DNA of 44,991 nt from a phage, in sequence record PZ379602.1; one strand, written 5' to 3'. Numbering within the stretch: the stretch's first letter is position 1; every line of letters starts with the position of its first letter. Shown here in pieces: positions 2,081 through 2,497 of this stretch. The position numbers were made by a program, and so were the translations under genes. The notes under the pieces are model-generated. The model did no database searches. It saw only the letters and a program-made list of their open reading frames with translations, and was not told the DNA's origin.

Positions 2081-2497
2081 ATGAGTCACGTAATCACTGG
2101 TGTTATCCGTCGCGCTCCGTTCACCAAAGAAGGTCAGAATGCTAACGGAACATGGAAAATGTATGCAGTTGATTTAAGCGAGCGCTACAAGGACAAGGAT
2201 GGTCAGGTACATTACAGTAACTATCGAGCTGTCTTCTTCGCAAAAGAATCAATGCTTGCATGGTACGATGAGGCATTTCAGGAAGGTAAAATCGTTAGCG
2301 TAAGTTGCGAAACTTTGGCTGTAGATGTTCGCGATAAAGATGGTAAAACTTACGTAACCATTAACATGAACAACCCTAGACTTGAGTTTAGTCAGCGTGG
2401 CGAGGGCGGGAAGCAACAACAACAGCAACAGCAGCAACAGCAACAGCAGCAACAGCAACAGCAACAGCAGCAGTTTAACGATGACATTCCGTTCTGA
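2081..2497 (+). CDS. ssb: single-stranded DNA-binding protein
   Basis: 138 aa with OB-fold-like N-terminus, Gly/Gln-rich linker and the canonical acidic C-terminal tail DDDIPF. Confidence 0.9.
   Translation: MSHVITGVIRRAPFTKEGQNANGTWKMYAVDLSERYKDKDGQVHYSNYRAVFFAKESMLAWYDEAFQEGKIVSVSCETLAVDVRDKDGKTYVTINMNNPRLEFSQRGEGGKQQQQQQQQQQQQQQQQQQQQFNDDIPF
2414..2473 (+). repeat. (CAR)20 trinucleotide repeat encoding a 20-Gln tract in the SSB linker
   Basis: Uninterrupted CAA/CAG codons, directly visible. Confidence 0.95.

Follow-up and report, generated by a model that had tools for sequence, protein, structure and literature searches.

The stretch of DNA analysed here (44,991 nucleotides (nt), sequence record PZ379602.1; hereafter the window) comes from a T1-like coliphage of the Drexlerviridae (Braunvirinae), whose nearest GenBank relatives, phages ES and AN_ECEAS, share 89-93% identity with it over part of the genome. 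[quoted passage not shown] A first-pass annotation, made from the letters alone, had pointed to this run. The feature is real and represents an unusually pure allele of the known glutamine-rich linker of Drexlerviridae SSBs. The gene is made up of the following parts:

2081..2497, plus strand: ssb, a 138-residue divergent phage single-stranded-DNA-binding protein, stop codon included (ORF, phrog_44, annotated relatives)
2081..2398, plus strand: N-terminal OB-fold core binding single-stranded DNA (ssDNA), residues 1-106 (AlphaFold2, Foldseek, OB-only profile, hhalign)
2399..2473, plus strand: disordered linker G-E-G-G-K-Q20, residues 107-131 (predicted local distance difference test score, pLDDT, below 50; 121 homologues)
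2414..2473, plus strand: 20 uninterrupted Gln codons (ORF translation, (CAR)16 pattern scan)
2474..2494, plus strand: C-terminal tip F-N-D-D-I-P-F, resembling the E. coli SSB C-terminal tip (SSB-Ct) DFDDDIPF (translation, homologue tips)

The first-pass annotation had called the gene an SSB gene and the glutamine run its linker, and both assignments are borne out. The ORF product belongs to the PHROG family phrog_44 'single strand DNA binding protein', which it matches over residues 1-138 (E=2.3e-29, 104 bits), and homologues in several GenBank phage records carry an SSB annotation. AlphaFold2 models residues 1-100 confidently (pLDDT 74-89) as a β-rich core of eight strands and one helix, while residues 107-136 have a pLDDT below 50 and are predicted to be disordered. 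When this model was compared with the PDB using Foldseek, nearly all of the top 50 matches were OB domains of bacterial SSB or PriB proteins, with probabilities of 0.9-1.0. By the model and the structural matches, the N-terminal OB fold of a bacterial-type SSB is thus present. It is followed by a low-complexity disordered linker, GEGGK plus 20 Gln with a pLDDT below 50 throughout, and the protein ends as ...FSQRGEGGK-Q20-FNDDIPF. The stop codon lies directly after F-N-D-D-I-P-F, so that the acidic tip finishes on hydrophobic-Pro-Phe and leaves the carboxylate free. The tip had been described as DDDIPF, but F-N-D-D-I-P-F follows the run, which makes it NDDIPF with a Phe in front. A tip of the form F/L-x-x-x-I-P-F ends 118 of 120 homologues, and FNDDIPF is its commonest version (44/120).

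Several results weigh against reading the ORF as an SSB gene. No match to Pfam PF00436 is found at E<=1, and NCBIfam TIGR00621 scores the ORF at 15.1 bits (E=0.022) with a cut-off of 53.95, so that the protein falls outside both curated bacterial SSB sequence models. A PDB sequence search with the whole protein returned noise only (PsaH, poly-Q proteins) and no direct relative, and the E-values of the Foldseek matches (1e-3 to 3e-2) are marginal and their TM-scores low (0.3-0.5). On the other side, a profile of the OB part only, built from 40 cores without tails and with identities down to 26%, matches Rim1, the mitochondrial SSB of yeast (E=1.7e-4), and a Bartonella SSB (E=0.22). The alignment of this profile with E. 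coli SSB (EcSSB) by hhalign has an E-value of 7.9e-4, but a probability of only 24.7%. This low-probability alignment places Y36, Y48 and F53 on EcSSB W40, W54 and F60, and leaves EcSSB W88 without an aromatic counterpart; Y48 is invariant within the profile. W40, W54, F60 and W88 are the aromatic residues by which EcSSB stacks on ssDNA. We conclude that ORF 2081-2497 encodes a divergent SSB with canonical core, disordered linker and acidic IPF tip.

The overall plan corresponds to that of EcSSB, a homotetramer, in which an OB core at the N terminus is likewise followed by a disordered low-complexity linker, also containing Gln, and by an acidic tip (MDFDDDIPF) ending in D-D-I-P-F. The phage core is, in contrast, very divergent and below the Pfam and TIGR00621 thresholds. 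While the EcSSB linker is about 56 residues long and rich in Gly, Gln and Pro, that of the phage has 25 residues, is 80% Gln and contains almost no Gly or Pro. The EcSSB tip carries four Asp, compared to two in the phage tip.

The glutamine run was described correctly in its position and extent. Positions 2414-2473 hold exactly 20 consecutive Gln codons (9 CAA and 11 CAG), uninterrupted, in frame with the ORF and directly before the tip; in order these are three CAA, then CAG, CAA, two CAG, CAA, CAG, CAA, two CAG, CAA, CAG, CAA, CAG, CAA and three CAG. No other long amino-acid run exists anywhere in the window, and the poly-Leu and poly-Cys runs seen in other frames are the DNA of the same tract read differently. 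The run cannot be ascribed to chance, because 0.00 occurrences of a (CAR)16 pattern (R being A or G) are expected from 100 dinucleotide-preserving shuffles and, with Gln making up 3.7% of the codons in long ORFs, a run of 20 is expected about 2e-25 times.

The first-pass annotation further took the tract for a (CAR)20 microsatellite, a kind of repeat prone to length variation, and the sequence does not bear out a classical slippage-prone microsatellite. CAA and CAG are intermixed, in stretches of no more than three identical codons, and Tandem Repeats Finder (TRF) reports periods of 6, 15 and 21 (period 15: 3.5 copies, 94% matches) and no period of 3. Self-identity of the tract is 77% at a shift of 3 nt and rises to 89-90% at 6, 15 and 21 nt. 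Head-to-tail copies of one identical unit of 1-6 nt are thus not present. The predicted single-strand DNA hairpins of the tract are weak (-4.5 and -6.3 kcal/mol), and the CAA:CAG ratio of 9:11 is near the genome-wide ratio of 139:217. The longest exact repeat inside the tract measures 29 nt (2420 vs 2435) and reflects a longer unit:

2420..2463, plus strand: 15-nt sub-repeat CAACAGCAACAGCAG, present twice without change and a third time over 14 nt, a full third unit having one mismatch (TRF, 29-nt repeat)

Because no codon occurs more than three times in a row and TRF lacks a period of 3, the tract is a degenerate CAR repeat with 15-nt sub-periodicity and no pure trinucleotide microsatellite. 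Mixed coding of polyglutamine by CAG and CAA, as in TBP-type tracts, steadies the DNA against slippage relative to pure CAG. Eukaryotic tracts of this type resemble the phage tract in that homopolymeric Gln is encoded by interspersed CAA and CAG; they differ in that here the run forms the linker of a phage SSB and, with 20 residues, stays below aggregation-linked lengths, and there is no homology between them.

On the opposite strand the repeat gives rise to a further reading frame:

2249..2464, minus strand: spurious antisense ORF with TTG start and poly-Leu, wholly inside ssb

This ORF exists as it had been described, as a by-product of the repeat. It has no PHROG family match, and the antisense frame over ssb is open in all relatives as well, because the complement of CAR is YTG (Leu). 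A real antisense gene was therefore rejected: no family supports it and the open frame is a mechanical product of the CAR repeat. For an ORF in the +2 frame at 2382-2546 the only match was short and marginal (E=0.003 over 17 residues).

To place the linker within its family we used the 120 best database hits and one cluster member (n=121). Linkers of these homologues are 21-34 residues long (median 27) and contain 11-22 Gln, corresponding to a Gln fraction of 0.48-0.73. Of the 121, 120 contain one Pro or more, and all contain at least one Lys or Arg. The window linker, with 25 residues, 20 Gln (0.80), no Pro and one Lys, is therefore ordinary in length and Gln count and not expanded; it is unusual in purity only. 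A glutamine-rich disordered linker is the norm for the SSB family of the Drexlerviridae. Direct homologues in this family (phrog_44; for example phages phiA2-1, JulesPiccard, RobRod40 and TR2) are 79-97% identical to the window protein and share its gene position after exonuclease and Erf, its Q-rich linker and the F-x-D-D-I-P-F tip. They differ in that the Gln tract is broken by Pro, Arg, Lys or His, with longest pure runs of 3-14 compared to 20 here.

The interruptions are not placed at random. Counted from the tip Phe, Pro is found at position -6 in 100 of the 121 homologues (83%) and Arg at -8 in 37. Where the homologue motif reads R/Q-Q-P-Q-Q-Q-Q-Q-F-x-D-D-I-P-F, the window has Gln at -6 (2456-2458), and every interruption after the initial G-E-G-G-K is missing, including the Pro at -6 and the Arg at -8. 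EcSSB likewise has Pro-Pro-Met right before its tip. Across the family the mean longest Gln run is 6.27, compared to 7.32 in shuffled linkers, and none of 2000 shuffles gave a value as low; long pure runs are hence disfavoured. The longest pure runs found in relatives have 14 Gln (in the IMG/VR copy of vB_EcoS-IME253, locus L134) and 12 Gln (IMGVR_UViG_638275560, locus L136), and the longest run does not exceed 11 among the 120 best protein matches. In the wider family, sampled by 62 representatives at 50% identity, tails are mostly rich in Q, P and G and end in D-D-I-P-F, and the longest Gln run is 8. Since the Pro is conserved and long runs are avoided, we judge the purity of the Gln run to be neutral to mildly deleterious. 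These run lengths also speak against the suggestion that repeat length tunes the interactions of the SSB with its partners, as they argue for avoidance of long runs.

The origin of the pure allele can be approached from its surroundings. The ssb gene sits in an exonuclease-Erf-SSB module and is followed by a terminator, a convergent tail-fibre gene and then a primase gene:

348..1319, plus strand: PD-(D/E)XK exonuclease (DUF3799, ExoVIII-like), opening the recombination module (PF12684, E=1.6e-21; phrog_412, E=2.6e-102)
1348..2040, plus strand: Erf-family single-strand annealing protein, upstream partner of ssb (PF04404, E=8e-28; phrog_155, E=6e-48)
2434..2476, no strand: interval in which the 100% identity to the closest relative (locus L001) stops, a mosaic junction within the CAR tract (DNA comparison of the window with L001)
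2505..2524, no strand: bidirectional intrinsic terminator of ssb and the convergent tail-fibre gene (8-bp stem, 5 G-C pairs, T runs on both strands)
2526..5084, minus strand: convergent tail-fibre/tailspike gene, variable module just past the junction (ORF; 93% to ES and AN_ECEAS, unrelated to L001)

The closest relative, found in the Logan assemblies of SRR32022333 and SRR32022307, has an SSB core identical to that of the window and the linker GEGGK-Q7-P-Q6-R-Q-P-Q5. At the DNA level the window is 100% identical to this relative from about 1950 to 2434, i.e. through Gln codon 7. Beyond this point the two diverge in the tract, in the tip (24 nt with 3 synonymous differences) and in the terminator, and their tail-fibre genes, at ~50% identity, are unrelated; to the right of the tract the window resembles ES and AN_ECEAS at 93%. 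As the identity to L001 ends at the CAR tract and the right flank resembles ES and AN_ECEAS, the comparison places a mosaic junction inside, or at the 3' edge of, the tract. The unit CAACAGCAACAGCAG occupies Gln codons 3-7 in both the window and L001, and in the window it recurs once unchanged and once more with a single mismatch, so that about 2.5 copies make up what remains of the tract. The 15-nt sub-repeat is likely the trace of a tandem duplication.

We consider it probable that the tract is the disordered linker of a divergent phage SSB in an allele purified by recombination or slippage. In this scheme two phage lineages would have recombined with resolution inside the degenerate CAR tract, or the tract would have slipped, and the out-of-register crossover or slippage would have swapped the interrupted segment for tandem copies of the pure 15-nt unit from codons 3-7. 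Recombination or slippage within the degenerate repeat is the most likely source of the Q20 allele, the mutational route being deduced from the present-day sequences. Linkers evidently turn over by whole-codon events in related phages as well, judging from the comparison of L134 with L136, which shows 14 differences in 84 nt of linker, including a 9-nt indel, against ~1-2 per 100 nt over most of the flanks; in this pair the linker is a local hot spot of change.

Some observations count against this origin. The 15-nt periodicity is modestly significant (P ~0.03), as shuffling of the codon order gives an internal repeat of at least 29 nt in 3.4% of trials. A right-hand recombination parent was not found in any collection searched: the exact DNA pattern of tip plus stop has 0 matches among contigs from viruses, metagenomes and genomes, the best protein match to the adjacent 400 residues of the tail fibre is only 52% identical, and complete E. 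coli genomes and plasmids contain no match to window 2000-2900. The exact SSB protein is not found in a collection of 15 billion proteins, and the allele rests on a single assembly.

The last point bears on whether the purity of the run is itself an error, the first-pass annotation having named such repeats as prone to misassembly. The true linker would then be interrupted, and the pure (CAR)20 a mis-resolved short repeat, produced by a de Bruijn loop via the 15-nt unit or by errors of consensus polishing. Besides the missing protein, the 29-nt exact internal repeat fits this explanation, as it would form a cycle in the assembly graph at k <=29, and so does the absence of the strongly conserved Pro at -6. 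A search of IMG/VR, JGI metagenome contigs and GTDB genomes for (CAR)12 followed by an F-x-x-D-I-P-F-stop tip gave 0 matches, so that no SSB-type tail with at least 12 pure Gln at the tip is seen there; a control pattern with 5 Gln before the tip gave two. IMG/VR holds at least 131 tracts of (CAR)16 or longer, and among the matches listed (119 stretches) none lies in an SSB tail; many of the listed tracts are on contigs labelled as giant-virus assemblies (GVMAG). On the other hand, the tract is in frame, and its 25-residue linker with 20 Gln stays within the family range. Its 60 nt fit within any modern read and would be resolved at k >29, and a mix of CAA and CAG so near the genome-wide ratio is atypical of error. 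The tip and terminator next to the tract deviate from L001 at numerous independent positions, indicating a truly different lineage there, and the relatives with pure runs of 12 and 14 demonstrate that long runs occur. We therefore regard an artefact as unlikely.

A further explanation would make the tract a contingency locus, in which frequent slippage of the CAR repeat allows the phage population to tune the reach of the tip or the self-association of the SSB. Linker length does vary among relatives, as had been anticipated, by whole codons over the range of 21-34 residues; the linker gathers differences faster than its flanks when L134 is compared with L136, and the 15-nt unit is tandemly repeated. 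The length differences, however, always keep the tip in frame, and the frame switching of a contingency locus is not observed. The lack of identical-codon runs longer than three and of a period-3 array argues in the same direction, and instability driven by hairpins was rejected on account of the weak folding energies. Moreover, 43 near-clonal vB_EcoS isolates of a related phage are 100% identical across the linker, which is of the interrupted type, so that the part of the claim that concerns ready length variation is not upheld there: for this type of linker the isolates give no sign of rapid instability. Longest family runs whose mean is below that of any of the shuffles, with interruptions at conserved positions, point to constraint rather than to exploited instability. 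A contingency locus thus appears highly improbable.

The junction also raises the question whether crossovers by homology or microhomology recur at the low-complexity CAR tract, together with the conserved tip and the terminator, bordering the tail-fibre (host-range) module, with Q20 as an out-of-register scar. In line with such a landing pad, the window ceases to be identical to L001 within the tract, and beyond it the two tail-fibre genes are unrelated. The 57-nt segment of tip and terminator (window 2478-2530) is 87-96% conserved in phages that share nothing else nearby, and a CAR-rich stretch lies at the tract position in every family member. Matches to the 57-nt segment occur in vB_EcoM_50EP, phiJLA23, AHP42 and C119, in each case beside a tail-fibre or tailspike gene. 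In a pairwise scan of 24 loci (276 pairs) for junctions at the linker, however, the pair of window and L001 is the only clean case, and the other parent of the recombination is missing from the collections. The border could equally sit at the tip or the terminator, with the tract rearranged separately, and mosaic patches exist elsewhere too, for example inside erf, so that the junction here is not special in itself. We judge a recurrent landing pad to be improbable; that out-of-register exchanges at the CAR tract swap receptor-binding genes between diverged phages and continually remodel the linker, Q20 being a fresh scar, seems to us just as doubtful. The patch inside erf covers the middle of the gene (window 1500-1900), which is 73-90% identical to L001 with flanks at 99-100%, and constitutes a second mosaic patch, within a gene.

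For the tract as the linker of a divergent SSB, the role of the linker and its partner binding can be inferred by comparison with characterized systems. The OB core would coat the ssDNA made by the neighbouring PD-(D/E)XK exonuclease. By analogy, the FNDDIPF tip, as a near copy of the host SSB-Ct, would dock host SSB-interacting proteins and probably also the phage Erf annealase. The linker, which is uncharged, polar and rich in Gln, would tether this tip ~25 residues from the core, and, if it behaves like that of EcSSB, may add weak tail-tail (amide-amide) contacts favouring cooperative binding or condensation. In EcSSB the intrinsically disordered linker and the tip have roles in cooperativity, condensation and partner binding, and the linker supports non-nearest-neighbour cooperativity as well as phase separation via amide-amide contacts (PMC7584906; bioRxiv 10.1101/2022.01.17.476650; PMC12143593).

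Two published results weigh against such tail-tail contacts. In EcSSB, tail-tail interactions are judged to be driven mainly by Gly rather than by Gln, and the tail of the Plasmodium SSB, rich in N/Q, does not support cooperativity (10.1101/2022.01.17.476650). The SSB of the Plasmodium falciparum apicoplast resembles the phage protein in its strongly amide-rich (N/Q) disordered tail (bioRxiv 10.1101/2022.01.17.476650); it differs in that its tail carries many acidic residues, and it exhibits neither cooperative binding nor condensation. Richness in Gln or Asn alone is thus no predictor of EcSSB-like tail-tail behaviour.

A model for how the tip may serve Erf is offered by phage HK620, whose SSB is also encoded beside its single-strand annealing protein. 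The last six residues of the HK620 SSB (NDYPPF, similar to DDDIPF) are required for stimulation of its cognate annealase Sak4 and for loading of this enzyme on SSB-coated ssDNA (PMC5928155). HK620 differs from the phage studied here in that its annealase is of the RecA-like Sak4 type instead of Erf and in its tip sequence, and no poly-Gln linker is noted in the passages on its SSB.

Taken alone, the Q20 linker matters little, as it is an allele that is extreme yet within range for a feature already known from Drexlerviridae SSBs. The window and its closest relative nevertheless form a natural test pair, with the same OB core and tip residues and linkers of Q20 versus Q7-P-Q6-R-Q-P-Q5. In this pair the effect of linker interruptions on cooperativity of the SSB, on condensation and on recruitment of partners is isolated; one of these interruptions is the Pro that 83% of the homologues retain. 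Should the proposed junction be correct, it would also illustrate how a coding tract of low complexity can form the module border for the exchange of host-range genes.

In some relatives the tip is not the end of the reading frame. An HNH-type endonuclease gene (phrog_2340, E=5e-40) lies directly after the ...DIPF codons of the SSB in the Logan assembly of SRR4242136 (locus L129, 2501-3404), and the same insertion accompanies three further SSB proteins (P0006, P0066 and P0126). In these relatives the SSB frame continues for ~20 conserved residues with the pattern A-S/P-L/F-G-L-Q-Y-x-x-H-x-I-x-x-L. As judged from the translated sequence, this extension would bury the C-terminal Phe carboxylate that is normally bound by SSB partners.

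The tail fibre encoded beyond the terminator has 852 residues. For its C-terminal 400 residues the best protein match in a search of 5.8 billion clusters is 52% identical, and protein relatives of this part thus do not exceed 52% despite the 93% DNA identity of the gene to ES and AN_ECEAS. This suggests either a rare receptor-binding module or a gap in the cluster collection as the reason for the scarcity of relatives.

Elsewhere in the window we noted a tRNA-Arg gene with the anticodon CCT (23200-23275, plus strand) and, near the window end, a 22-nt tandem repeat with 2 copies and 83% matches (44895-44940). Among the database records, GenBank OR466728.1 (phage ES) labels its SSB 'terminase small subunit', and near-identical coliphage sequences (P0009, H12 and H94) are filed under Streptomyces lividans, Campylobacter phage A110b and Pseudomonas phage PsgS01F. 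This label and these filings likely represent mislabelling or contamination.

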